Positions 10,832-60,547 of a stretch of 64,000 nt of DNA are shown in pieces. The position numbers and the translations under genes are program-made. Location of the stretch: the IMG/VR virus record IMGVR_UViG_3300037466_003153, positions 25,253 through 89,252 of that record, one strand, 5' to 3'. The notes under the pieces are model-generated. The model was not told where the DNA came from. It worked only from the letters and a program-made list of their open reading frames with translations, and did no database searches. Position 1 is the stretch's first letter, and every line of letters begins with the position of its first letter. Origin of the DNA: a virus (taxonomy: Duplodnaviria > Heunggongvirae > Uroviricota > Caudoviricetes).

Positions 10832-11938
10832 GTGAGTACTTTTAAAGTTGAAATTGTTAAAATTAATGGTGTCATGCCACACCCAAATGCAGATAGACTT
10901 GATATTGTACAAGTTAATGATTGGCAATGCGTAACTGCTAAAGGTAACTTCAAAGTTGGCGACCTTGCTGTTTATTTTCCAATTGATTCCTTGCTACCAG
11001 CAAACGTTGAATCTGCTATCTTTGGACCAGATGCAAAAGTAAAGCTTACTAATAGCCGTGTCCGTACTATTAAACTTCGCGGTGCCATTTCTCAAGGCAT
11101 TGCGGTAAGACCAGAAACCTTTTATTCATCACACGGTCCTTGGTATTTAGGTCAAGATGTAACTAATGAGTTAGGAATTACTAAATACGAACCTGAAGTC
11201 AAGGGACCATCTACAACTCTAGGTAAATCTTCTCGTAATCAATCCAATCCTAATTTCCATAAGTATGGCGGGATTGAGAATGCTAAGAATTATCCAGATT
11301 TGTTTCAAGAAGGGGAAGAAGTTGTTGTTACTGAAAAGATTCACGGTACAAATTTTAGAGCGGGATATGTTCCTTTCTATGCTGATACACTATTTAAACG
11401 TGTAAAACAATTTTTTGGACTAACCCCTAAATATGAGTTTGTTTATGGATCTAATAATGTTCAACTTCAAAGCAAACTACTTTATAAAGGTTATTACAAC
11501 ACTAACGTTTATGCTGAAACTGTTTTTAACTACGGTCTTCAAGATCTTCTAGAGGAAGGTGAAGTTATTTACGGTGAAGTTTATGGAGATGGCGTTCAAA
11601 AAGGATACACCTATGGATGCGGTAAAGACGAACGTAATCTTATTGTATTCGATGTCATGGTAAATGGCAAATACCTTAACATCTTGGATGCAAAGAATTT
11701 TTGTGATGCTAGAGGACTAAACTTTGTCCCTATTATCTACATGGGAACCTTTAATAAGGAAAAGATTTTAGCTATGAGAGATGGTGACAGTATTTTGTCA
11801 CCTGAACAAAAGATTAGAGAAGGTGTTGTTGTAAAACCTGTTGAAGAACAAATGTGTTATATTGGACGCAAGTTCCTAAAGTATATCAGTGATAATTATT
11901 TGCTAAAGAATCAGGATAATGAAACTTTACCACATTAA
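10832..11938 (+). CDS. RNA ligase, Rnl2-like (ATP-dependent nucleotidyltransferase)
   Basis: Motif I EKIHGTNFRAGY around the lysine, and a downstream EGVVVKP motif, both as in T4 Rnl2. A GGAG Shine-Dalgarno precedes the start. Confidence 0.7.
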   Translation: MSTFKVEIVKINGVMPHPNADRLDIVQVNDWQCVTAKGNFKVGDLAVYFPIDSLLPANVESAIFGPDAKVKLTNSRVRTIKLRGAISQGIAVRPETFYSSHGPWYLGQDVTNELGITKYEPEVKGPSTTLGKSSRNQSNPNFHKYGGIENAKNYPDLFQEGEEVVVTEKIHGTNFRAGYVPFYADTLFKRVKQFFGLTPKYEFVYGSNNVQLQSKLLYKGYYNTNVYAETVFNYGLQDLLEEGEVIYGEVYGDGVQKGYTYGCGKDERNLIVFDVMVNGKYLNILDAKNFCDARGLNFVPIIYMGTFNKEKILAMRDGDSILSPEQKIREGVVVKPVEEQMCYIGRKFLKYISDNYLLKNQDNETLPH

Positions 11939-12080
11939 TTTTCTTGATGTTTACGCTAATAGTGTATATAATTATTAGGGTAAGGGATACAATTTTGGGT
12001 TAGTTCAACAGCAGAATGTGGAGACTTCAGACCTCTAAGATAAGTGTGCAATTCACTTACCCAAAACTTTTTAGGATATT

Positions 12081-12872
12081 ATGAATAAACCATACATTTT
12101 ATATCATGGAAACTGTTTCGATGGATATGGAGCAGCATTTGCAGCGTGGAAGAAATTTGGATCAAACGCAGTATACATTCCTTGTGTTTACGGTGCTACT
12201 ACTCCTTTGGTGCCTAAAGGAGTTGAAGTGTTCATGATTGACTTCTCCCTCAAACGAGATGAGATGTTAAAACTTCATGAAAATTGTAATGGTAAGCTTA
12301 CTGTATTAGATCATCATAAAACCGCAGAAGAAAATCTTAAAGGATTAGACTTCGCATATTTCGATATGAATCGTTCTGGAGCTATGATGGCTTGGGACTT
12401 CTTTCATGGTACAGAAGCACCAGAACTTATTAAGTATATTCAGGATAGAGATCTTTGGAAGCATGAACTTCCTTTCTCTAAAGAAGTTTCTGCAGCATTA
12501 CAATCATATCCTTATGAGTTTGCAGTTTGGGACACACTTCAAGTTCCAACACTTATCGAAGAAGGAAAAACATTACTTCGTTATCAAGAAGTATTGGTTG
12601 ATATGATTTGTGCAAAAGCATTCAAAGCAAATCTTGGTGGCCATGAAATCATGGTAGTTAATAGCACTTCTCATTGGTCAGAAGTCGGAAATAAGCTTTG
12701 TAAGATGTTTCCAGATGCTCCATTCTGTGCTTCTTTCTTTGTAGATAGCGCAACTGGAAATCAAAAATATTCGCTCCGTTCTATTGGTGATTTCGACGTA
12801 AGTGTTATTGCTAAACAGTATGGTGGCGGTGGTCATAAAAACGCTGCCGGATTTGAGGTGAAGTTTGACTAA
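12081..12872 (+). CDS. DHH-family phosphoesterase (NrnA/nanoRNase-like, 263 aa)
   Basis: DHH motif (LTVLDHHKT) and DHHA1 motif (GGGGHKNAAGF). Confidence 0.75.
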   Translation: MNKPYILYHGNCFDGYGAAFAAWKKFGSNAVYIPCVYGATTPLVPKGVEVFMIDFSLKRDEMLKLHENCNGKLTVLDHHKTAEENLKGLDFAYFDMNRSGAMMAWDFFHGTEAPELIKYIQDRDLWKHELPFSKEVSAALQSYPYEFAVWDTLQVPTLIEEGKTLLRYQEVLVDMICAKAFKANLGGHEIMVVNSTSHWSEVGNKLCKMFPDAPFCASFFVDSATGNQKYSLRSIGDFDVSVIAKQYGGGGHKNAAGFEVKFD

Positions 12873-15025: not shown

Positions 15026-16063
15026 ATGAATAATATCCTATATACACAATTTGGTTCTCATATTTACGGAACGAATGTTCCAACTTCAGATATGGACTTT
15101 AAAGCGGTTTTTATTCCTACTGCTAAAGATATTGTCCTTCAGCGTGCTCCTGGCACTATTGTACAGAATACTAAAACTGACAAGAATGCACGTAACACTG
15201 CAGACGATGTAGATATCGAGATGTTTTCTCTTCATCGCTATCTAGATCTTCTCATGCAAGGTCAGACGGTGGCCCTTGACATGCTTTTTACTCCAGATTC
15301 TTTTCATTCAAAAGGTTCTTGGCAATGGGATTATATTAGACAACACAAAAACGAGTTTCTACACAAAGGAACCGTAGCTTTCATTGGCTATGCGAAACAG
15401 CAGGCGGGTAAATATGGAATTAAAGGAACTAGAGTTGCAGCGTTAAGAACAACTTTAGATCTATTTAATAAACATGAAGATTATAAAAAACTTAATCATG
15501 TAGATGTGTTTTTTGATTTACTTGTTTTATGTTATTCTAATTTTATCGATTATAATGGAGATCCATTAGATACTAATCTTAATTTGAACAATGAATTTAT
15601 TAAACTTATAAATATAAAAGGACCAAACAATAAAATAGAACTTCATTTAGAAGTTTGTAATAGAAAAATTCCTCTACATGCCACGGTTAAATACGCTAAA
15701 TCTATCTTTCAGAAAATCTTTGATGAGTATGGAGCTAGAGCTTTACAAGCTGAGAAGAATGAAGGTGTCGATTGGAAAGCACTTATGCACGCAGTTCGCG
15801 TTTGCGGACAAGCATATGAACTATTAAGTACTGGACATATCACTTTTCCAAGACCGGAAGCTCATATTCTTCTTCAAATTCGAAAAGGCGAGCTACAATA
15901 CAAAGCAGTAGCAGAATGTATTGAAATGGGACTTGAAGATTTGGAGAAAGCTAAGCTAAAGTCTTCACTAAGAGATGAACCTAACCGTTTGTTCGCTTCT
16001 GAGTTTATTGAAGACGTTTATTCTGCAGCTGTATTAGGCGAATATGGTTATGAAGGAAATTAA
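15026..16063 (+). CDS. Pol-beta-superfamily nucleotidyltransferase (345 aa)
   Basis: N-terminal GS-x9-SDMD motif (FGSHIYGTNVPTSDMDFKAV), typical of minimal nucleotidyltransferases. Confidence 0.55.
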   Translation: MNNILYTQFGSHIYGTNVPTSDMDFKAVFIPTAKDIVLQRAPGTIVQNTKTDKNARNTADDVDIEMFSLHRYLDLLMQGQTVALDMLFTPDSFHSKGSWQWDYIRQHKNEFLHKGTVAFIGYAKQQAGKYGIKGTRVAALRTTLDLFNKHEDYKKLNHVDVFFDLLVLCYSNFIDYNGDPLDTNLNLNNEFIKLINIKGPNNKIELHLEVCNRKIPLHATVKYAKSIFQKIFDEYGARALQAEKNEGVDWKALMHAVRVCGQAYELLSTGHITFPRPEAHILLQIRKGELQYKAVAECIEMGLEDLEKAKLKSSLRDEPNRLFASEFIEDVYSAAVLGEYGYEGN

Positions 16064-16607
16064 ATTAACAAAGGGTTATGTTGCCCTAGTAGATGATGAA
16101 GATTATGAAAAACTTTCAGAAAGAAGCTGGCATGTCTCATTCTCTAATAAAAATAAACGACATAAACAACATGTTTACGCTCAAGTTACTATTAAAAAAG
16201 ATGGAATAAAAAAGACTTATAAGATACATCGTATAATTTTAGGAGTAAATGATCCAAAAATTGATGTAGATCATATTAATGGTAATACATTAGATAATAG
16301 ACGTTGTAATCTCAGACTTTGTAGTAGATCCGATAACAATAAAAATTCAATTAAAAGAAGTAAACTTGATAGTAAATCTCCTGTTTCTAAGTATAAAGGT
16401 GTCAGATATTCTTTTATTTACAAACCTAATGGTAAAAAACATATAAGATCTAAACCTTGGATGGCAGCAGGATCTGAAAATGGTAAACCTGTGCATTTGG
16501 GTTATTTTAAAACAGAACTTGAAGCAGCTAAAGCTTATAATGAATTTGCATTGAAATATTATGGCGAATTTGCTAAAATTAATGAAATAGAGGATAAAAA
16601 TGAGTAA
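16044..16607 (+). CDS. HNH homing endonuclease with C-terminal AP2 DNA-binding domain
   Basis: HNH core (DVDHINGNTLDNRRCNLR) plus an AP2-like segment (YKGVRY...GKPVHLGYFKTELEAAKAYNEFALKYYG). Confidence 0.7.
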   Translation: MVMKEIKLTKGYVALVDDEDYEKLSERSWHVSFSNKNKRHKQHVYAQVTIKKDGIKKTYKIHRIILGVNDPKIDVDHINGNTLDNRRCNLRLCSRSDNNKNSIKRSKLDSKSPVSKYKGVRYSFIYKPNGKKHIRSKPWMAAGSENGKPVHLGYFKTELEAAKAYNEFALKYYGEFAKINEIEDKNE

Positions 16608-25205: not shown

Positions 25206-25610
25206 ATGACAATCTCAAATGAACTGAATAGACGAATTATACAACACGCTAACAAGCTAACTTATAACGTTAGCGATGTAGCTCCAGATACGTTTGAAAC
25301 TCTCAAGTCAAACGTTGTTAGCATTCTAACCGTTTGGTCGGGTGCTAGCGATAAAACAATCTATGGAGATGCTGCAGTCAATCATGCGTTTCGTGCGTGG
25401 CATGACTCATTGCATCTCAAACTTAATGCACCTTTCACGCTAGAAGGTGAGATTTTAGTTGCTAAGTTTCAAGCTAACGCGCTAAAGAATGATGCATTAG
25501 GTGCTATCATTATGGCCGAGGTACAAGGTCAAGCTGAATACTTCGCTAAGCATGGAACATTCCCAGAAAATCAAGTTGAATTTATTCAATCCTATTTAAA
25601 GGCCGCTTAA
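25206..25610 (+). CDS. Hypothetical protein (134 aa)
   Basis: ORF. Confidence 0.45.
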   Translation: MTISNELNRRIIQHANKLTYNVSDVAPDTFETLKSNVVSILTVWSGASDKTIYGDAAVNHAFRAWHDSLHLKLNAPFTLEGEILVAKFQANALKNDALGAIIMAEVQGQAEYFAKHGTFPENQVEFIQSYLKAA

Positions 25611-33527: not shown

Positions 33528-33560
33528 TATAAGGTATGAAAAGTGTTAGGTGTAACTTCT

Positions 33561-33911
33561 ATGCATGTACTTATTGTAGAAGATGATGAAATTACGCTGG
33601 ATGTACTTAAAACTGTTATAGAAATGGAATGTCAAGCAAGATGTTATGCGGTGAATAATCTTGAGGATGCGCTAACGATATTAAAAGGTGTTCACTTTGA
33701 TCTCTTAGTTGCTGACCTATATCTAGATGACGTTGCTATTCCTATTATTCAACTCGCTAAACAACAGAAAATACCCACTGTAGTTATCAGCGCCGCTTCT
33801 TTTGCTAGACAAAAAATGCATGAATTAGGAGTTGAACATTTCATTCAAAAACCTTTTGAGTATGAAACTTTCGTACAAGTCATTGAATCTATTTGTGTAA
33901 AAAATAATTAA
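33561..33911 (+). CDS. Stand-alone response-regulator receiver (CheY-like REC) domain protein (116 aa)
   Basis: MHVLIVEDDE...FDLLVADLYL...TVVISA pattern of receiver domains. Acidic pocket plus conserved Asp and Thr/Ser. Confidence 0.6.
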   Translation: MHVLIVEDDEITLDVLKTVIEMECQARCYAVNNLEDALTILKGVHFDLLVADLYLDDVAIPIIQLAKQQKIPTVVISAASFARQKMHELGVEHFIQKPFEYETFVQVIESICVKNN

Positions 33912-35486: not shown

Positions 35487-37112
35487 ATGACAGAGTTTGA
35501 TGTTTTTTCTAGTAAATTCGCACAAGATATTTTCCTTCAAAAGTATTCTATGGATAAACAAGAAACTTGGGAAGATACTTGTCGTCGTGTTGTTAGTAGT
35601 GTATGTGGTCAACTTCTCCCTAAAGAAGAACAAGAAGAAATCTTTAGAGCCATGTATGAAAGAAAGTTTATTCCTGGTGGGAGATATTTATATTCAGCAG
35701 GACGTGCTTTACATCAAGTAAATAATTGTTTCCTATTTAGAGCTGGAGATTCTCGTGAAGAATGGGCAGACGCCATGCAAAAGGCAACATCTGCTTTAAT
35801 GACGGGTGGAGGAATCGGCTTTGATTACTCTACACTCCGAGAAGAAGGCGCTCTTATTAAACGTACTGGCGGAACTTCTACCGGTCCTATTGCACTAATG
35901 AATATGGTTAACGAGGCTGGACGTTACATTATGCAAGGTGGTGCAAGACGTTCTGCTATTTGGGCAGGATTAAATTGGTCACATTCTGATATTGAAAAGT
36001 TCTTAAAGCTCAAAGATTGGCCAGAAGAAATTAAGAAGATCAAAGAAAAAGATTTTACTTTTCCAGTTCCAATGGAATTAACTAACATCTCTGTTATCTA
36101 TGATACAGAATTCTTTATTGCTATTGAAGATCCTAAACATCCTAAACACAAACTCGCTAAAGATATTTGGATGAAAAATTGTAGACAAGCTTTCAGTACT
36201 GCAGAACCTGGAATGTCTATGAATTTTCGCAAGGATAATGAATCACTTCGTAATGCTTGTACTGAAGTCGTTAGTGAAGACGATAGCGATAAATGTAACC
36301 TTGGTACAATTTGGATCAATCGTATTAAGGATAAAGATGAACTTGCACATATCACTCGTTTGTCTACTAAGTTTCTAATTTGTGGCGGCATTTATTCGGA
36401 CGTTCCAAATGATAAGATTAAGCAAGTTGGCGACAAGAATAACCGAATTGGATTAGGTTTGGGTGGTATGCATGATTGGCTTATGCAGCGCGGTGAAGAT
36501 TATGAAGTTACTCCTGAGCTTCATAAGTGGTTAAGTATTTACGAACAAGAATCAGATGGTGCTGCTTTCATGTATGCAAGAACGCTCGGTGTGTCTGTTC
36601 CTAAAGGCGTTAGAGCAATTGCACCAACTGGAACCATCGGTATTATTGCCGAAACTACAACAGGAATTGAACCGCTATTCTGTAAAGCTTACAAACGTCG
36701 TTATCTTAAAGGCGGTAAAGATTGGGTATATCAATATGTTGTTGATGGATCTGTTAAGAGACTTCTTGAACAAGGTGTTCCGCTTGAAAAGATCAAAGAT
36801 TCTTACGATCTAAGTTTTAAACAACGCGTTAAGTTTCAAGCGGACGTTCAAAATTACGTTGATATGGCTATATCTAGTACTTGTAATTTGCCAGCTTGGG
36901 GTAGTGAAACTAATAACGAAGAAACATTAAAATCGAATGCAAAAATCCTATTAAAGTATGCGAAACGTCTTAGAGGATTTACTTGTTATCCTGATGGTTC
37001 TCGCGGAGGTCAACCTCTAACCAGAGTTGATATTAAAGAAGCTTTGGATAATGAAGGAACTGTTTTTGAAGAAGTTGAAAATAAATGTGTTAACGGTGTC
37101 TGTGGATTATAA
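35487..37112 (+). CDS. Ribonucleotide reductase, probably class II-like monomeric (541 aa)
   Basis: Motifs VNNCFLF (active-site Asn-x-Cys) and GGGIGFDYSTLREEG...GGTSTGPIALMNM (RNR glycine-rich segments). C-terminal Cys pair CVNGVC. Start chosen at the ATG at 35487, downstream of the structured leader. Confidence 0.55.
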   Translation: MTEFDVFSSKFAQDIFLQKYSMDKQETWEDTCRRVVSSVCGQLLPKEEQEEIFRAMYERKFIPGGRYLYSAGRALHQVNNCFLFRAGDSREEWADAMQKATSALMTGGGIGFDYSTLREEGALIKRTGGTSTGPIALMNMVNEAGRYIMQGGARRSAIWAGLNWSHSDIEKFLKLKDWPEEIKKIKEKDFTFPVPMELTNISVIYDTEFFIAIEDPKHPKHKLAKDIWMKNCRQAFSTAEPGMSMNFRKDNESLRNACTEVVSEDDSDKCNLGTIWINRIKDKDELAHITRLSTKFLICGGIYSDVPNDKIKQVGDKNNRIGLGLGGMHDWLMQRGEDYEVTPELHKWLSIYEQESDGAAFMYARTLGVSVPKGVRAIAPTGTIGIIAETTTGIEPLFCKAYKRRYLKGGKDWVYQYVVDGSVKRLLEQGVPLEKIKDSYDLSFKQRVKFQADVQNYVDMAISSTCNLPAWGSETNNEETLKSNAKILLKYAKRLRGFTCYPDGSRGGQPLTRVDIKEALDNEGTVFEEVENKCVNGVCGL

Positions 37113-37612
37113 TGATAGATCGTAAGGATGCTATCTCTGTAGAAAGAAAATTTTACCCTGGTACTGGATATGTAAATACTTACATTTTTAAGTGTAAAGG
37201 GTTTGAATGTGATGAATTATGTCGTGTTCAAACCCAATATTTAAAGAAATCTAAAGGTCTTTGTAAAAGATGTGTTCAAAAAGGACTACCATTTGAAGCC
37301 AAATATAATGAGTTAAAAAAGAGCTGTAAGAGAAGAAATATAGATCTTACTATTAGTTATGAAGATTTTTTAGAATATACAAAAATAGTTAACTGTCACT
37401 ATTGTTTAGATAAGATTGTTTGGTATCCTTTTACAAGAGATACTAAAGATCATTCTGTTGTTAGTAGGAGCTATAATTTAGATAGAAAAAACAATGATTT
37501 AGGCTATACAAAAGAAAATTGTGTTGTTTGCTGTTGGAAATGTAACTCAGCTAAGAGTGCTAGATATACCTATGATGAATGGTATGGAATGACCGAGTAT
37601 TTTAGGTGTTGA
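37112..37612 (+). CDS. HNH endonuclease (homing-endonuclease-like, 166 aa)
   Basis: CHYC...NLDRKNNDLGY...CWKCN motif, as in the 42799 gene. Confidence 0.5.
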   Translation: MIDRKDAISVERKFYPGTGYVNTYIFKCKGFECDELCRVQTQYLKKSKGLCKRCVQKGLPFEAKYNELKKSCKRRNIDLTISYEDFLEYTKIVNCHYCLDKIVWYPFTRDTKDHSVVSRSYNLDRKNNDLGYTKENCVVCCWKCNSAKSARYTYDEWYGMTEYFRC

Positions 37613-40120: not shown

Positions 40121-40304
40121 AATTGTAAATCTCATTGCTGATTTTCTTTATGAGCTTAATCTTGATGCCGATGAAGCTAAAGAAAAGGCAGATAAACTAC
40201 TTACTTCTATCGAAGATTCAGGTATGGACCCACCTCAATACATGGATAAAGGATGTAGGTGTATGACTTGCTATAGCTATGGATGGGAACCTGAAAATGA
40301 TTAA
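40107..40304 (+). CDS. Hypothetical protein (65 aa)
   Basis: ORF. Confidence 0.4.
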   Translation: MKRSKIVNLIADFLYELNLDADEAKEKADKLLTSIEDSGMDPPQYMDKGCRCMTCYSYGWEPEND

Positions 40305-40743
40305 ATATATCAAAGGCGACTTGTTTGCTACCGATGCTGACATTATCGCTCATGGTGTGAATTGTCAGGGTAAATTCGAATCAGGTATTGCTGGTATCAT
40401 CAAACAAAAATACCCTAAAGCAAGACAATACTATCTTGATAAATACGAAGATGAAGGTTGGAATTTAGGCGATGTCCAATATGTGAAGATTGGTAGTGGT
40501 GATAATTTTATTGCCAACTGTGCCACTCAAGACACATATCTTCCTAGAGGTATATGTCACGTTGACTATAATGCTATTAGACAATGTATGGAAAATGTTA
40601 AACGTGTAGCAAAGTTACATGGGTACACAGTTGCTATACCTAAAATTGGTGCAGGACTTGCTGGTGGTGATTGGAATATTATCGAAAAAATTATTAATAA
40701 AGTATTTGATGATTATCCTATTATCTGTTATTATATAGACTGA
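40279..40743 (+). CDS. Macro-domain protein (ADP-ribose-binding / ADP-ribosyl hydrolase family, 154 aa)
   Basis: GDLFATDADIIAHGVNCQGKFESGIAGII and VAIPKIGAGLAGGDW match the macro-domain signature (GD..xxxDAIVNAAN..GGGV..AI / IAFP.I.tG..G). Confidence 0.65.
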   Translation: MDGNLKMIKYIKGDLFATDADIIAHGVNCQGKFESGIAGIIKQKYPKARQYYLDKYEDEGWNLGDVQYVKIGSGDNFIANCATQDTYLPRGICHVDYNAIRQCMENVKRVAKLHGYTVAIPKIGAGLAGGDWNIIEKIINKVFDDYPIICYYID

Positions 40744-40785: not shown

Positions 40786-41223
40786 ATGAAAGTAGTGATT
40801 AACAAGTGTTATGGCGGCTTTTCAATCTCCCCGGAGGCGGCGCTTTGGTTATATGAACGCGGCTTCAAAGCTGAAGGATTTGTAACGCCAATCGAAAACT
40901 ACTGGAGTGACTTAACGGCTGAGCGGGGCAAGACCTTAGGGTATAAAGCTCAACTGGCACGGTGGCAGGAATATCGTAGCGGAAAACATGCCGGAAGTAG
41001 TTTCATTACCGTTTTTGCTCCCGACGAAAAAAGTGTCCTTAGCACTCGCCCGGATTGTCGCCATGACCCGCTCTTGATTGAGTGTATCGAAACCCTTGGC
41101 GACAAAGCTAACGGGAGGTGCGCAGAGCTAAAGATTATCGAGATTCCAGACGGCGTTGATTACACCATCGATGAGTATGACGGCATGGAGCATATCGCCG
41201 AAAAACATCGGACTTGGGGATGA
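40786..41223 (+). CDS. Hypothetical protein (145 aa), first gene of the GC-rich island
   Basis: GGAG Shine-Dalgarno. GC content is clearly above the phage background. Confidence 0.5.
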   Translation: MKVVINKCYGGFSISPEAALWLYERGFKAEGFVTPIENYWSDLTAERGKTLGYKAQLARWQEYRSGKHAGSSFITVFAPDEKSVLSTRPDCRHDPLLIECIETLGDKANGRCAELKIIEIPDGVDYTIDEYDGMEHIAEKHRTWG

Positions 41224-41258
41224 GACACTTTCACAAAGAGTAACGAGGTATTGAAATC

Positions 41259-41438
41259 ATGGGCCAATCTTTAGACGAGTTTATCGCAAAATACGGCGCT
41301 GTTCAGGTGCTCAAAAAGAACCTGAAAGCCAATATAGACGTGTATTGCGACGGCTGGACCGAAGAACAGAAGGAACAGCTTCTCCGTATGAACATGATTA
41401 TGGTCCGCCAATGCCTAAATGACTTTGGAGCGGAATGA
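41259..41438 (+). CDS. Hypothetical small protein (59 aa), GC-rich island
   Basis: AGGTATTGAAATCATG context. Just under the 60-aa ORF-track cutoff. Confidence 0.35.
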   Translation: MGQSLDEFIAKYGAVQVLKKNLKANIDVYCDGWTEEQKEQLLRMNMIMVRQCLNDFGAE

Positions 41439-41439
41439 G

Positions 41440-41636
41440 ACAAATTAAATTGTAACCTCTGGTGATTCCAGTCCGTTCCAACGGTCAATTAGGGTCACTG
41501 TCGATGAGAGGTCGGCCCAGAGGAAACAAGCCTGCGGGTGCCCTCTACCAACGTATGGGTGGAGTCCGAAAGAGGGTAAATGGAAAGCTCGTACTCCCCA
41601 GCCCGCAGGATTCATTGAGCGCGAATTGAATGGAGT
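41440..41636 (+). ncRNA. Candidate structured noncoding RNA / cis-regulatory RNA (~190 nt, GC-rich, multi-stem)
   Basis: Perfect nested stems: CCTCTGG 41456-62 with CCAGAGG 41517-23; CCTGCGGG 41531-38 with CCCGCAGG 41602-09; CCCTCT 41541-46 with AGAGGG 41571-76; GGAGT 41561-65 with ACTCC 41594-98. Ends in the GGAG Shine-Dalgarno of the next gene. Confidence 0.35.
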
Positions 41637-41984
41637 TTGTTTATGAAAATAGATTGTGGCGATAACTCATGTCACTTTGCAGAAGATAAAAGCGGGATGC
41701 GGACAAATGGTGGCTGTAGGTGCTTGAGTAATGCGGGTTTTAGTCGCTCAGCCATAGCCAGCGCCTACGAGATGCTGCCCGAGATTCTTCGCTTACGAGA
41801 AGAGCGCGACGCACTCCGCGCTGAGCGTGACGACGCCCGCGAAAACTCGAATAGGTTTCAAATGCAGGTTATGCAACTCCGCGCTGCCGGGGACGCTATG
41901 TATAAGGTTTGCGTTGGCGATTCCAGCGAGAGCTTTCTCAAGGTCGCACGCGAGTGGAAAAAAGCCGTTGGAAAACAAGGCTAA
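41637..41984 (+). CDS. Cys-cluster + coiled-coil protein (115 aa), GC-rich island
   Basis: CGDNSCHF...GGCRC then LREERDALRAERDDAREN. Same architecture as 19095..19475. Confidence 0.45.
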   Translation: MFMKIDCGDNSCHFAEDKSGMRTNGGCRCLSNAGFSRSAIASAYEMLPEILRLREERDALRAERDDARENSNRFQMQVMQLRAAGDAMYKVCVGDSSESFLKVAREWKKAVGKQG

Positions 41985-42007
41985 GTAACAGTTCAAAGAA
42001 AGGTAAC

Positions 42008-42808
42008 ATGATTAAATTAAGAGCAAATGGCATTGAAGTTCCGTTTGAAGTATCGAAGTTTCCAGATGGCACCAGTCAACTTTGGAAAGCAGGTAGGTTA
42101 GACTTATTTAGCCATTTTCGTATCAATTTTATTTGGGAGAATGATGAAAGAGAAGTTTTTCATCTTCTAATGCTTATTGATCTAATAAGATCATATAATC
42201 CAGATGCTTTTATTTATCTTGCTATGCCATATTTACCTTATGCGCGTCAAGATAAGCCAGTTGTAAGTGAATTCACATTTGCATTAAATACGTTTGCTAA
42301 CTTGTTGAATTCTAAAAACATCGATCTTATTGAGAGTTTTGACGTTCATAGTAATCAAGCTCATAAACTAATCAAAAACTTTCATTCAATTAGTCCACAA
42401 AATTTTCATAATTGGGTATACTCAAAATTTAAACCAGATTTATTTTTTTATCCCGATCGCGGAGCTGCATATCGTTACGCTGCTGCTATTAATGAAATTA
42501 TGTTATTTGGTAACAAGGTTAGAAACCAAAGCACTGGTGAAATTACAGATTATGAAATTGCCAATCTAAACCACTTTGATATTAAGGATAAAAAGATTCT
42601 TATTATTGATGATATTTGTGATGGTGGTGCTACTTTCATTACCGCTGCTAAAAAGCTAAAAGAACATGGAGCTGGTGAAATTGGCTTGTGTGTATCACAT
42701 GGTTTGTTTTCTAAAGGATTTGATGAGATGAAAGCTGCTGGTATTAGTCAATTCTTCACAACTAATAGTTTGTTGAAAAATTCCGATGGGTACAAGGTTT
42801 GGGAATGA
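42008..42808 (+). CDS. Ribose-phosphate pyrophosphokinase (Prs)-like protein; candidate ADPR-pyrophosphate synthetase (Adps) of an NAD+ reconstitution pathway
   Basis: PRPP-binding loop KILIIDDICDGGATFITAAKKL, a Prs-like N-terminal half and an AGGTAACATG start context. Confidence 0.65.
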   Translation: MIKLRANGIEVPFEVSKFPDGTSQLWKAGRLDLFSHFRINFIWENDEREVFHLLMLIDLIRSYNPDAFIYLAMPYLPYARQDKPVVSEFTFALNTFANLLNSKNIDLIESFDVHSNQAHKLIKNFHSISPQNFHNWVYSKFKPDLFFYPDRGAAYRYAAAINEIMLFGNKVRNQSTGEITDYEIANLNHFDIKDKKILIIDDICDGGATFITAAKKLKEHGAGEIGLCVSHGLFSKGFDEMKAAGISQFFTTNSLLKNSDGYKVWE

Positions 42809-43362
42809 GACAACGTATTTACATGGAACCTGGTTTGAAGTTTGGAAGATGGACTTCCATTCAATTTTCTCATAAGGATTCAAGTAATATTTATTTTTGG
42901 TTGTTTAAATGTGACTGTGGTAATGAAAAAGTTATTAGAGCAATGTCTGTAACTTCAGGAAGATCTAAAAGTTGCGGTTGTTATGATAGAGAATTAAAAT
43001 CTAAAAGACAAATTAAACAACCGGGATATGCAGCTTGTAGAAAAGTATATAATACATACAAACATCATGCCGAACGTAGGAATTTGTGTTTTGAATTGAC
43101 GTTTGAAGAGTTTAAGAAATTAGGAGAAACTAATTGTTATATTTGTGGTATTGAACCTAAACAATTAGTTGCTATTGATAAATCAGGAATAACAACAAAT
43201 TGGTCATATAATGGTATTGATAGAGAAGATAATACCAAAGGTTATTCCTTGAATAATTGTAGAGCATGTTGTAAAATATGTAATGTAGCCAAAAATGACT
43301 TGACTGAGGAAGAATTCAAAAACTGGTTGAATCGTATTGTAACCTTTAATAAGGAAATGTAA
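42799..43362 (+). CDS. HNH endonuclease (homing-endonuclease-like) inserted between the Prs-like and NAMPT-like genes
   Basis: CYICG...NGIDREDNTKGY...CCKICN. Confidence 0.5.
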   Translation: MGMRQRIYMEPGLKFGRWTSIQFSHKDSSNIYFWLFKCDCGNEKVIRAMSVTSGRSKSCGCYDRELKSKRQIKQPGYAACRKVYNTYKHHAERRNLCFELTFEEFKKLGETNCYICGIEPKQLVAIDKSGITTNWSYNGIDREDNTKGYSLNNCRACCKICNVAKNDLTEEEFKNWLNRIVTFNKEM

Positions 43363-43363
43363 A

Positions 43364-44815
43364 ATGAACAAAAATCTTCTTTTATGTACTGATATTTACA
43401 AGGTCGGCCATATGCTTCAATATAAGCCAGGGACCACAAAAGTATATTCATATCTTACAACTCGTTCTGACAAGAAGATCCCTTACACTATTTTCTTTGG
43501 ACTTCAATATTATCTTAAGGAATATCTTTCTAGACCAATCACAAAAGAAGATGCTGATGAATTTTGTGAATATTACAAAATGATTCTAGGTGTAGAACCA
43601 AATGAAGAAACCAAAGTTAAAGTTTATGGTTTAGTTGAATTGGGTTATTTACCCTTAAAAATTAAGGCTGTACCGGAAGGTACCATTATGCCTGTAAAAA
43701 ATGTATTGCTAACTATGACCAATACACATCCCCAATTCGCATGGGTTGTTGGCTTTTTCGAATCTCTTATTCTAAAGCTTTGGAATACTACTACTGTTGC
43801 AAGCTATAGCCACAAGCTTAGACAACTCTGTGTAGAATATGCAGATGCGACTTGTGATAACAATGATCATGTCAACTTTCAAGTTCATGACTTTGGCTAT
43901 CGTGGTGTTAGTTCGGAAGAAACTGCAGCTCTATCTGGTGCGGCTCATCTTCTTAATTTTTTAGGAACTGACACTGTTCCTGCTGTAGCATTTCATAAGG
44001 AGTATTATGCTGGCGAATTTCCTATCGGTCTTAGCGTTCCTGCTTCTGAACATTCAGTTATGTGCAGTTTTGGTAGGGACAACGAACTCGACGCATTTAG
44101 AAATATGCTTAGCTTGTATCCAAGTGGTATTGTCAGTATTGTATCTGATACTTACAATATCTGGAACGTTTTGACTAATTTTGCTTCACAATTGAAGGAT
44201 GAAATTTTAGCTCGCGACGGTAAAGTTGTTTTCAGACCAGATAGTGGAGATCCTGAACAAATTATCAACGGTTCAAATGAATGTAATTGTAAAAATGATA
44301 TTTGCGGTCCAATGTGTGAACCGGATTGTAAAGGAGCATTACAACTTCTTTGGGAACAGTTTGGAGGAACAATTAACTCGAAAGGTTATAAAGTTCTAAA
44401 TCCTAAAGTTGGTCTAATTTACGGCGATGGCATGTATTATGATCGTTTCAAACGCATTCTAAAAACTATGGAAGAGAATGGATTTGCGAGTAGCAATTTA
44501 GTTATCGGCGTTGGTGGATTGCTCCTTCAGGATCATTCAAGAGATGACCAAGCATATGCTATTAAAGCTACATATTCAGAAGTGAATGGTGTTCCTTTTG
44601 AGCTTATGAAAGATCCTATTACAGATAGCAAAAAGAAGTCACATAAAGGATTACTCGCTCTATTTCAAAGTGAATATGATGGTAGTTATCTAACTTATGA
44701 TCAATGTACACCCGAAATGGAAGAAATGGGTTTGCTTAAAACTGTATTCGAAGATGGTAAAATTTTAGTTAATACCAATCTTCAAGAAATTCGTAAGAGA
44801 GTATTGGAAGGTTAA
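43364..44815 (+). CDS. nadV: Nicotinamide phosphoribosyltransferase family protein (NadV/NAMPT-like; candidate Namat)
   Basis: Signature DFGYRGVSS plus a full-length ~480-aa NAMPT fold pattern. Confidence 0.85.
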   Translation: MNKNLLLCTDIYKVGHMLQYKPGTTKVYSYLTTRSDKKIPYTIFFGLQYYLKEYLSRPITKEDADEFCEYYKMILGVEPNEETKVKVYGLVELGYLPLKIKAVPEGTIMPVKNVLLTMTNTHPQFAWVVGFFESLILKLWNTTTVASYSHKLRQLCVEYADATCDNNDHVNFQVHDFGYRGVSSEETAALSGAAHLLNFLGTDTVPAVAFHKEYYAGEFPIGLSVPASEHSVMCSFGRDNELDAFRNMLSLYPSGIVSIVSDTYNIWNVLTNFASQLKDEILARDGKVVFRPDSGDPEQIINGSNECNCKNDICGPMCEPDCKGALQLLWEQFGGTINSKGYKVLNPKVGLIYGDGMYYDRFKRILKTMEENGFASSNLVIGVGGLLLQDHSRDDQAYAIKATYSEVNGVPFELMKDPITDSKKKSHKGLLALFQSEYDGSYLTYDQCTPEMEEMGLLKTVFEDGKILVNTNLQEIRKRVLEG

Positions 44816-57248: not shown

Positions 57249-58460
57249 ATGAAACAAGTTATTTCAGATACTAAAGTACCTATTAAAATTTGGACCGATG
57301 AAGTTGAAGAAGAATCAATGCGTCAACTTCGTAATATGTCTAATATGCCTTTCATCTACAAGCATATTGCCGTAATGCCGGATGTTCACGCAGGAAAAGG
57401 TTCTAGTGTCGGAACAGTAATTCCAACACAAGGAGCAATTTGTCCTTCAACCGTGGGCGTTGATATTGGTTGTGGAATGTGTGCAGCAAAGCTCCCATTT
57501 AATGTGGATGCTCTAGGTGGTGATGAACAACTTCGCAATCTTCGTCATAGCATTGAGCGTTCAATCCCTACTGGTCATCATGGAAATAAAATTGTGACAC
57601 CTTCAGCTTCTCAGTTTTTTAAGAGCTTAGGTGAAGTTTCACAATATGCTAAAGATCATATGCGTAACCATCATAACGTTATGCAAAAGGCTATTGCTTC
57701 TATCGGAACTCTTGGTGGTGGTAATCACTTCATTGAGATTTGTAAAGACCAAGATAACAACGCTTGGATTATGCTCCATAGCGGTAGTCGCAATGTGGGT
57801 AAATCTCTAGCAGAAATTCATATTGATAGGGCTAAAGGATTGATGAAACAATACTTTATTGATCTTCCTGATATGGATCTTGCTTTCTTAGCACAAGGAA
57901 CTGAAGAGTTTAAAAACTATCTTCATGACCTAATGTGGGCACAACAGTTTGCTATGTTCAATCGTCAAGAAATGATGAATCGTGTCATGGAACAAGTATA
58001 TCGACACGTTTATAAAAATGAATGGCAAGAAAAAATCAATACTAGAGTTGAATTCGTGGTAAATTGTCATCACAATTATACTTCGATTGAAAACCATTTT
58101 GGGAAGAATGTTTATGTCACTCGTAAAGGGGCTGTCTCCGCTCGCGAAGGTGAGTACGGTATCATTCCTGGCTCTATGGGCACTAGGTCTTATATCGTTA
58201 AAGGATTGGGTAATTCCGAATCTTTCTGTTCTTGTTCTCATGGTGCTGGCCGTAAAATGTCTAGAACCAAAGCAAGAGAACTCTTCACACTAGAAGATCT
58301 TAAGCAACAAACTGCAGGTATCGAGTGTCGTAAGGATGATGCAGTTATTGATGAGATTCCTGGCAGCTATAAAGACATCGATGTTGTTATGGAAAACCAG
58401 AAGGATTTGGTAACACCACTTTACGAGCTTAAACAACTCATCTGTATCAAGGGTGATTAA
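57249..58460 (+). CDS. rtcB: RtcB-family RNA 3'-phosphate/2',3'-cyclic-phosphate ligase
   Basis: PDVHAGKG, DIGCGM, GGGNHF, HNY and SCSHGAGR motifs, all RtcB hallmarks. Confidence 0.9.
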   Translation: MKQVISDTKVPIKIWTDEVEEESMRQLRNMSNMPFIYKHIAVMPDVHAGKGSSVGTVIPTQGAICPSTVGVDIGCGMCAAKLPFNVDALGGDEQLRNLRHSIERSIPTGHHGNKIVTPSASQFFKSLGEVSQYAKDHMRNHHNVMQKAIASIGTLGGGNHFIEICKDQDNNAWIMLHSGSRNVGKSLAEIHIDRAKGLMKQYFIDLPDMDLAFLAQGTEEFKNYLHDLMWAQQFAMFNRQEMMNRVMEQVYRHVYKNEWQEKINTRVEFVVNCHHNYTSIENHFGKNVYVTRKGAVSAREGEYGIIPGSMGTRSYIVKGLGNSESFCSCSHGAGRKMSRTKARELFTLEDLKQQTAGIECRKDDAVIDEIPGSYKDIDVVMENQKDLVTPLYELKQLICIKGD

Positions 58461-60187: not shown

Positions 60188-60547
60188 ATGACGTTACAGG
60201 AAGTAATGAAATCCGGTAAAAAGTTTCGAAGACCAAATTTCAAACCATATATGGGTAGGGAAACTTTCTTATTCGTTGATGGTAATAAAATCTTATTTTT
60301 TAACACACATTCGGAATGGCAACCTAGAGTTGAAGATATTACAGCTACCGATTGGGTATTAGAAGAAGAGAAACGAGAATTTACATTCAAAGAAATTTTT
60401 GAAGCAGTAATTAATGTTTCATCAACTTCAGATTCTCAATCTAATTTTGAAAAAAATCTAAAAACAGCTTTAGGATATGACAATTCTTCAATGAGTCATT
60501 ACTGCGAAGGTTTGTTTTGTGATGAATGTAATGAATGGAAATTTTAA
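60188..60547 (+). CDS. Hypothetical protein (119 aa)
   Basis: ORF. Confidence 0.4.
   Translation: MTLQEVMKSGKKFRRPNFKPYMGRETFLFVDGNKILFFNTHSEWQPRVEDITATDWVLEEEKREFTFKEIFEAVINVSSTSDSQSNFEKNLKTALGYDNSSMSHYCEGLFCDECNEWKF

Follow-up and report, generated by a model that had tools for sequence, protein, structure and literature searches.

A probable NARP1-type NAD+ reconstitution module with an HNH endonuclease gene inserted between its enzyme genes in a metagenomic tailed phage

The IMG/VR record IMGVR_UViG_3300037466_003153 is an 89,252-bp contig of a virus of the class Caudoviricetes, of which a stretch of 64,000 nucleotides (positions 25,253 to 89,252 of the record; the window hereafter) is considered here. 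At window positions 42008–44815 it carries a gene for a ribose-phosphate pyrophosphokinase (Prs)-like kinase and a gene for a transferase of the nicotinamide phosphoribosyltransferase (Nampt) family, with an HNH endonuclease gene between them. We consider it probable that this locus is a NARP1-type module for the reconstitution of nicotinamide adenine dinucleotide (NAD+) that has received an HNH insertion; its substrates, its products and its anti-defence phenotype we infer. In the proposed route, the cleavage of NAD+ by host defence systems (Thoeris, DSR, SIR2-HerA and similar) would leave ADP-ribose and nicotinamide. Acting as Adps, the 266-aa kinase would then use ATP to pyrophosphorylate ADP-ribose to ADP-ribose pyrophosphate (ADPR-PP), and the 483-aa transferase, acting as Namat, would exchange the pyrophosphate for nicotinamide, giving NAD+ directly, without a nicotinamide mononucleotide (NMN) adenylyltransferase (NMNAT) step. 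As in NARP1-AP, a Macro-domain protein encoded upstream would probably turn ADPR-1''-phosphate into ADP-ribose and so supply the pathway. The HNH gene would be a selfish homing-endonuclease gene inserted precisely between the two enzyme genes, both of which are left intact.

An earlier note on this DNA had described a Prs-like gene, an HNH gene and a full-length NAMPT-like gene. All three open reading frames (ORFs) were found on the plus strand at the coordinates it gave, and the family matches agree with its description. The kinase gene (42008–42808, 266 aa) matches PHROG 619 'ribose-phosphate pyrophosphokinase' (E=1.7e-61) and Pfam Pribosyltran (2.2e-10); the free-standing HNH endonuclease gene (42805–43362, within the ORF 42799–43362) matches PHROG 374 (E=1.7e-19) and PHROG 1035 (1.5e-15); and the transferase gene (43364–44815, 483 aa) matches PF04095 (1.8e-46), PF18127 (9e-15) and PHROG 448 (7.4e-174). 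The packing is tight: the HNH ATG overlaps the kinase stop codon (ATGA) and a single nucleotide separates the HNH stop from the transferase ATG; the start/stop overlap suggests continued co-expression. With one ORF between, the transferase gene begins 556 nt after the end of the kinase gene, within the ten genes in which a Namat homologue is sought when a kinase is classed as Adps. Neither RNA genes nor terminators were found inside the module.

Judging from its PP loop, hairpin lysine, truncated C-terminus and position in the tree, the kinase is an ordinary Adps and not a housekeeping Prs. Three features characterize the Adps family: the PP loop is remodelled (D212-D213-I-C215-D216-x-A-A-S220-F221), the catalytic residue Lys185 sits on a beta-hairpin, and the alpha11-alpha12 C-terminal module has been lost (ICP1 numbering; PMC13586617). 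The PP loop of the window kinase is IIDDICDGGATF (DDICDGGATF; D201-D202-I-C-D205-G-G207-A-T209-F210), to be compared with DDICDGAASF in ICP1, DDICDGGMTF in SE131 and DDLCDGGSTF in DAC15, whereas the Prs loops differ, reading DDMIDTGGTL in E. coli and DDIISTGGT in the archaea M. jannaschii and S. solfataricus. Its hairpin, K170-V-R172...G177-E-I179, follows the motif K-V-R-N-x-x-T-G-E-I, in which K170, invariant in the family, occupies the position of the catalytic lysine of Adps (K185 in ICP1, K162 in SpbetaL1). This hairpin signature is common to 117 of the 120 database relatives, and the Adps signatures are kept in nearly all 120. The protein ends 16 residues past the TTNSLL motif, where Prs enzymes run on for ∼35–45 residues, and the alpha11-alpha12 module is absent. 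PF00156, PF14572 (Pribosyl_synth) and PF13793 (Pribosyltran_N) all match the kinase, and it stays under every NCBIfam cut-off for Prs (for example, 94.5 bits vs 296). In a neighbour-joining tree of 84 kinases, in which the outgroup consisted of only three Prs sequences, true Prs split off at 100% bootstrap, and the kinases that accompany relatives of the window transferase (the window clade, described below) interleave with classical Adps. The AlphaFold2 (AF2) model built from the family alignment (pLDDT 89) displays a PRPS-like fold, with Foldseek TM scores of 0.75–0.79 to phosphoribosyl pyrophosphate (PRPP) synthetases in a library that holds no Adps structure. The comparison with Adps and housekeeping Prs that had been proposed earlier thus places the protein with Adps, and the kinase is predicted to pyrophosphorylate ADP-ribose and not ribose-5-phosphate.

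No deposited phage genome is closely related to the lineage of this phage; in these genomes nothing is more than 30% identical to its terminase or more than 44% identical to its transferase. A megablast search of the locus against these genomes, a collection that contains no member of the window clade, returned only a 33-nt match. Querying IMG/VR with the single protein gave no match, and an alignment-based scan of the same database retrieved 80 loci with their flanks. A neighbour-joining tree of the transferases (90 taxa, 465 columns, 100 bootstraps) contained three groups: canonical Nampt (100%), classical Namat (100%) and, lying between them, the window clade together with a sister subclade carrying the motif GG-ILRNHSRD (79%). 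When the tree is rooted on Nampt, the Adps-linked transferases divide into classical Namat and the window clade. The window transferase is separated at 100% bootstrap from the NMNAT-linked (KVP40-type) Nampts and, at the same support, from classical Namat. It lies on the Adps-linked side, as the NARP1 interpretation of the earlier note had implied, in what appears from the tree to be a sister clade to classical Namat. As far as sequences tell, the window clade is a large, undescribed branch, found in metagenomic phages of ∼80–90 kb and in bacterial chromosomes.

Gene context follows the same division. An Adps-type kinase lies close by in all 17 window-clade IMG/VR loci, mostly abutting or overlapping the transferase gene, and none of these 17 has a match to NMNAT or Nudix hidden Markov models (HMMs) within 10 kb. 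Canonical Nampt loci with an NMNAT nearby include Mx1, B23, ACP17, BcepSauron and the IMG/VR locus L025. For comparison, 97% of the genes of the Adps clade have an adjacent Namat, and 94% of phages with a KVP40-type Nampt encode NMNAT (Osterman et al., 10.1101/2024.02.11.579819). Two IMG/VR viral contigs with the canonical Nampt motif, L025 and L085, encode a full-length canonical Prs (DDMIDTGGT, 309–320 aa), NrtR and a separate NUDIX-containing ORF, which is an NMNAT-Nudix fusion in L025 and a homologous ORF in L085, where the NUDIX domain alone was detected. These near-complete canonical sets amount to a NARP2-like pathway equipped with a PRPP synthetase of its own and with a regulator that senses ADPR.

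No NMNAT gene was found in the window or in ∼17 kb of its flanks. None of the window ORFs matches Pfam CTP_transf_like or NUDIX, and phmmer searches with four phage NMNATs (Mx1, B23, ACP17 and BcepSauron) against the six-frame translation of the window and its flanks gave a best E of 0.39, while the same four proteins, used as controls, detect each other at 1e-9 to 1e-48. The flanks were taken from Logan contigs with identical proteins, L011 on the right (∼9.4 kb) and L012 on the left (∼7.7 kb), ∼17 kb together, and contain genes for dUTPase, ClpP, endolysin and tail or capsid proteins. The remark in the earlier note that no NMNAT is visible in the window consequently holds and now extends to ∼81 of the 89 kb; an NMNAT elsewhere in the genome, which that note had named, together with Prs-like kinetics, as a finding that would speak against NARP1, was not encountered in this range.

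The transferase itself has an intact catalytic core. Residues D10, Y12, F177, R180, D203, H230, R291 and D293 are fully conserved, all ten core contacts are identical and H230 is invariant; the core does not differ between the window clade, Namat and Nampt. Its best sequence match in PDB is SpbetaL1 Namat (9W5X; 375 bits, ∼42% identity), followed by H. ducreyi NadV (359), Xcc Nampt (323) and human NAMPT (311). An AF2 model from the family alignment (pLDDT 90) superimposes on Namat 9W5X with a TM score of 0.90 and on human NAMPT with 0.88; Foldseek thus bears out a Nampt-like fold, values so close not telling Namat and Nampt apart. The lowest-confidence part of the model is a Cys-rich insertion of 20 residues, NECNCKNDICGPMCEPDCKG (window 44270–44329, plus strand; residues 303–322), with block pLDDT of 74 and 63. 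It falls in a variable surface loop, recurs in the alignment only in the relative P0123, there in a related form, and may constitute a small metal-binding knuckle.

Several observations weigh against a NARP1-type module, most of them concerning the specificity of the transferase. The selectivity of Namat for ADPR-PP is attributed to a clamp composed of the SCH consensus GS-X-Phi-X-Phi-X-Phi-TRD, in which F392 and Y396 stack on adenine, the SCL-loop residue R40 and the AMP-phosphate contacts D361 and A362; double mutants of the SpbetaL1 clamp lose 2.4- to 16.6-fold of the ADPR-PP activity while the PRPP activity is kept (PMC12774641). The SCH motif of the window protein is GGLLLQDHSRD, devoid of aromatic residues, and not GS[F/Y]TYQY.TRD, so that the published Namat signature is missing. 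An aromatic residue is likewise absent from the motif in 117 of 120 close database relatives, and all 120 display a motif of the GG[LI]L[LI]Q type. In a column-by-column alignment, all five discriminating ligand contacts turned out to be Nampt-like or non-aromatic. The Namat states at the NMN/AMP phosphate contacts are replaced by the Nampt state (S190 by G178, S391 by G385 and A/S362 by G356), and the stacking positions are non-aromatic (F/Y392 corresponds to L386, and Y/F/H396 to D/Q/S390, D390 in the window protein). Two features of classical Namats are likewise missing from the window clade: the NxxFF insertion of 8 residues, which all of them have, and the long SCL loop, in place of which the clade has one of Nampt length. 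Outside the transferase, the Macro gene lies four ORFs (1.26 kb) upstream of adps, beyond the published two-gene limit for NARP1-AP, and its family is common in phages without NARP1; furthermore, the absence of NMNAT concerns ∼81 kb, the remaining ∼8 kb between large tail genes having been outside the search. Finally, the score of H. ducreyi NadV (9KE8) against the window protein nearly equals that of Namat. Since this enzyme (9KE8/9KEO), which we take to function as a Nampt, scores almost like Namat, proximity in sequence or motif does not fix the choice of substrate. The two H. ducreyi structures were solved with NMN, and the protein has a hybrid motif, GAQTYQRNTRD.

The transferase can therefore not be filed as a canonical Namat, its contacts being Nampt-like or non-aromatic and the SCH consensus missing. 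It was on these residues, whose inspection the earlier note had suggested, that its proposal of NARP1-type chemistry found no backing; the Adps-type kinase, the lack of a detectable NMNAT and the Adps-linked position of the clade speak for that chemistry. We infer a preference of the transferase for ADPR-PP from this combination, and without an aromatic adenine clamp the binding of ADPR-PP may be less selective or different in mode.

Chromosomal counterparts of the module provide a further link to ADP-ribose. A scan of bacterial genomes retrieved homologues from Pedobacter steynii, P. caeni, P. cryoconitis, Pedobacter sp. AW31-3R, Mucilaginibacter and Ilyomonas (L105–L116), which share 59–61% identity with the window transferase and are encoded on large chromosomal contigs. 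Their motif is the non-aromatic GG-ILRNHSRD, and in the tree they fall within the window clade. The bacterial genes are arranged in the order ∼240-aa protein, Adps-type kinase, transferase. The ∼240-aa protein matched an HMM derived from NMNAT-Nudix fusions, and its identification as NMNAT was rejected since its Pfam domains are NUDIX and NrtR_WHD, i.e. it is NrtR. 'prs-nadV' operons, one of them in Cytophaga, a member of the Bacteroidota, are repressed by NrtR, which responds to ADP-ribose; the discoverers of NrtR remarked that the purpose of a dedicated prs paralogue was unexplained (Rodionov et al. 2008, PMC2330246). In enterobacterial and Acinetobacter chromosomes nrtR and adps are arranged alike, and the motif there is that of classical Namat. 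A bacterial NARP1 has been shown to be active; NARP1 is also described from Paenibacillus foliorum (PMC12774641). Because its bacterial members sit under an ADP-ribose-responsive regulator, the window clade is tied to ADP-ribose, and the nrtR-adps-transferase context would support NARP1-like chemistry. The phage module and the bacterial nrtR-prs-nadV operons or bacterial NARP1 share the same kinase-transferase pair and, in the Bacteroidota versions, the non-aromatic type of motif; in contrast, the phage has no NrtR, and the motif of the Bacteroidota proteins (GG-ILRNHSRD) is one residue shorter.

The Nampt-like pocket invites a different reading, classical salvage, in which the kinase makes PRPP, the transferase is a true Nampt producing NMN, a host enzyme set (NadR, or PncC with NadD/NadE) finishes the synthesis and no ADPR-PP is formed. 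Glycines at 178, 385 and 356, the loss of both aromatic clamp residues and an SCH motif that fits the GG.LLQ of Xcc, VH7D and human Nampt are all in line with it, as is the fact that the transferase passes the NCBIfam model NF006629 (NadV family) with 574 bits against a cut-off of 405; moreover, pairs of true Prs and true Nampt do exist in phage contigs, namely L025 and L085. However, those genuine pairs come with NrtR and a separate NUDIX ORF, which were not found in this genome, and the window kinase has neither the (D/S)TGGT ribose-5-phosphate loop nor the C-terminal module of Prs and clusters with Adps. SpbetaL1 Adps, for its part, gave no measurable product in a Prs-type control reaction, and the window transferase stands apart from the NMNAT-linked Nampts at full bootstrap support. 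We therefore regard classical salvage as improbable. Much the same degree of doubt attaches to the idea that an Adps kinase works here with a promiscuous or ancestral-like transferase, which would accept both ADPR-PP and PRPP with little selectivity and yield NAD+ and NMN; the clade would in that case reflect a stage preceding the evolution of the aromatic clamp, or would build a clamp from other residues, such as L386, K37 and H391. Its place between Nampt and classical Namat, as a sister branch to the latter, agrees with such an idea, and the 25 discriminating columns are split among 11 Nampt-like, 10 Namat-like and 4 that are neither. In all 13 aligned clade members the F392 stacking position holds Leu or Ile, where Nampt has Gly/Ala; K37, at the SCL position from which Namat contributes a stacking Arg, Lys or Tyr (R40 in SpbetaL1), is near-invariant, and D394 is invariant. 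KVP40 Nampt can use ADPR-PP too, and Namat can use PRPP. On the other side, a Lys at the SCL position is also found in true Nampts, whose loop length the clade shares.

The surroundings of the locus bring up yet another interpretation. The module is embedded in a nucleotide-metabolism and replication region with genes for ribonucleotide reductase, ThyX, dCMP deaminase and GMP reductase, and the pair could simply supply PRPP or NMN for phage nucleotide synthesis, with no counter-defence role. This seems very improbable to us, given that the kinase has Adps and not Prs signatures, that a gene for an ADPR-handling Macro protein lies nearby and that the bacterial homologues are placed under an ADPR-sensing regulator.

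A NARP1-type module thus remains our preferred reading, and its likeness to described systems can be specified. With the NARP1 modules of Bas63, SpbetaL1, Fado and ICP1 (10.1101/2024.02.11.579819, PMC12774641, PMC13586617) the window shares the order kinase-then-transferase, a kinase that has the PP loop and hairpin Lys of Adps and is shortened at its C-terminus, as well as a Nampt-like catalytic core, the linkage to Adps and, over the searched part of the genome, the lack of NMNAT. It differs from them in that the transferase, ∼42% identical, belongs to a sister clade in which the aromatic clamp is missing, as are the long SCL loop and the NxxFF insertion, and in the HNH gene lying between the two genes. 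In NARP2 (Nampt with NMNAT/Nudix, in Vibrio phage KVP40 and relatives), too, the transferase is of the Nampt family, has a motif of the GG.LLQ type and carries Gly at the phosphate contacts, whereas the window has no detected NMNAT or Nudix gene, an Adps-type partner and a transferase that branches separately at 100% bootstrap.

The HNH gene is a real and polymorphic free-standing insertion, as expected from the earlier proposal that a mobile element interrupts the pair. Translation probably starts from the ATG at 42805 and yields 185 aa, in agreement with the gene predicted on Logan contig L001, which is identical. No Pfam family matches this protein, and its best PDB match is the restriction enzyme PacI (3LDY, 7.9e-5), of the beta-beta-alpha-metal type; the position of the usual catalytic His is occupied by Arg ('IDRED'), as in PacI. 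An intron or intein origin was considered and rejected, the gene being a separate ORF between two intact genes. In the closest relative, L097, and in L098, the HNH gene is absent from the junction, where adps and the transferase gene overlap by 8 nt, and an HNH homologue (36% identity, E=1e-38) is located upstream of adps. The same junction is occupied by an unrelated Endonuclease_7 ORF in L099 and L100 and by a 72-aa ORF alone in L101; most window-clade IMG/VR loci have no HNH gene there, while HNH homologues between Adps and Namat are also present in L075 and L024. In the window, an HNH paralogue (34% identity) is found at 37112–37612, directly after the ribonucleotide reductase gene. This polymorphism in presence and position matches the expectation for free-standing homing-endonuclease genes. 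With free-standing phage HNH homing genes the window gene shares its small size, its location between conserved genes, its presence or absence among relatives and the occurrence of paralogues in the genome; it differs in the Arg at the usual catalytic His. An HNH_3-type gene is additionally situated at 16044–16607, after an RlaP gene, and the genome thus contains several free-standing homing-endonuclease genes.

The Macro-domain gene, overlooked in the earlier note, occupies positions 40279–40743 on the plus strand, with a probable true start at the ATG at 40297, and matches PF01661 (3.9e-9) and PHROG 335 'phosphatase' (2.9e-44). Among NARP1 phages, 15% carry a Poa1p-like Macro phosphatase, Adpp, which converts ADPR-1''-phosphate to ADP-ribose and defeats aRES (Osterman et al., 10.64898/2026.01.28.702374). 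The best PDB matches of the window protein are BT1257 (5e-16) and, less good, Poa1p (1.6e-8, in the N-terminal part only). Homologues are encoded in 15 of the 80 related loci (E from 1e-7 to 1e-23), among them classical NARP1 operons, and six of these loci (L043, L050, L052, L079, L088 and L089) have the Macro gene precisely between Adps and Namat. L097, the closest relative, has a Macro gene two genes upstream of adps, with a product that is 50% identical; only an HNH gene lies between, within the two-gene limit of NARP1-AP. It is plausible on these comparisons that the window protein is a candidate Adpp-like ADPR-1''-phosphate phosphatase and that its gene makes the arrangement NARP1-AP-like; the assignment is plausible and not established because the Poa1p match is N-terminal only and the family is common without NARP1. 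Compared with NARP1-AP proper (Adps-Adpp-Namat, Vibrio phage Gary), the window likewise has a Macro protein near the NARP1 genes, homologous to those found between Adps and Namat elsewhere, but its gene is more distant from adps and its likeness to Poa1p is confined to the N-terminal part.

What separates the Macro gene from adps is a sharply bounded GC-rich island (∼40,900–42,000; 44–52% GC vs 30–38% in the flanks), at the position where L097 has its HNH gene. Three small ORFs on the plus strand are associated with it (40786–41223, 41259–41438 and 41637–41984), none with a Pfam match and only the first with a PHROG (16527, of unknown function). No homologues of these ORFs were found in the related loci and no Rfam or tRNA match in the island, whose DNA gave a single match in the phage collection, 77 nt at 77% identity to a hypothetical protein gene. 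The island looks like a recent foreign insertion, and its ORFs are probably outside the pathway.

Some other features of the window and its relatives deserve mention. The single tRNA predicted by ARAGORN, at 11994–12067, has the anticodon TCA (label tRNA-SeC) and is flanked by the genes for RNA ligase and DHH phosphoesterase; it is possibly an opal suppressor, and the ORFs read normally with translation table 11, with no sign of recoding. The genes at 10832–11938, 15026–16063 and 57249–58460 make up an extensive RNA-repair set (an OB-domain RNA ligase, a nucleotidyltransferase of the RlaP family and RtcB), which suggests a defence against host systems that cleave tRNA or RNA. A Pfam match to Tad2 (Thoeris anti-defence 2) at 60188–60547 (E=8.9e-4) was below the cut-off and without PHROGs or PDB support, and was set aside as probably due to chance. 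A stand-alone response-regulator receiver domain protein is encoded at 33543–33911 and, in the same position, in the relatives L097 and L098. In L099, an 80-aa ORF (12261–12503) a few kb downstream of the NARP1-like module has a weak match to the Acb2/Tad1-hairpin Pfam family, so that a cyclic-nucleotide sponge is a possible identity.

NARP1 is a recently discovered, widespread phage counter-defence, the second enzyme of which is now recognized by the aromatic clamp signature. The locus described here would allow a direct test of whether NAD+ can be reconstituted in vivo without the clamp, and has a bearing on the evolution of Namat from Nampt and on the annotation of such modules; should its enzymes behave as in classical NARP1, it would be a routine additional member with a divergent sequence. 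In this phage group, the NARP1 locus is also a hotspot for mobile endonuclease genes. More tentatively, and with less than even confidence, we propose that the phage loci and the chromosomal nrtR-adps-transferase clusters of Pedobacter, Mucilaginibacter and others make up a large sister clade of Namat that has an ordinary Adps as its partner and no aromatic clamp. If this is true and NAD+ is still made from ADPR-PP, the clamp would be dispensable for NARP1, the partnership with Adps would be older than the clamp and signature-based annotation would miss a whole branch of NARP1; if the clade prefers PRPP instead, an Adps-type kinase would be feeding a different, undescribed route. The clusters of Pedobacter, Mucilaginibacter and Ilyomonas, all cultured Bacteroidota, would offer experimentally tractable stand-ins for the clade.

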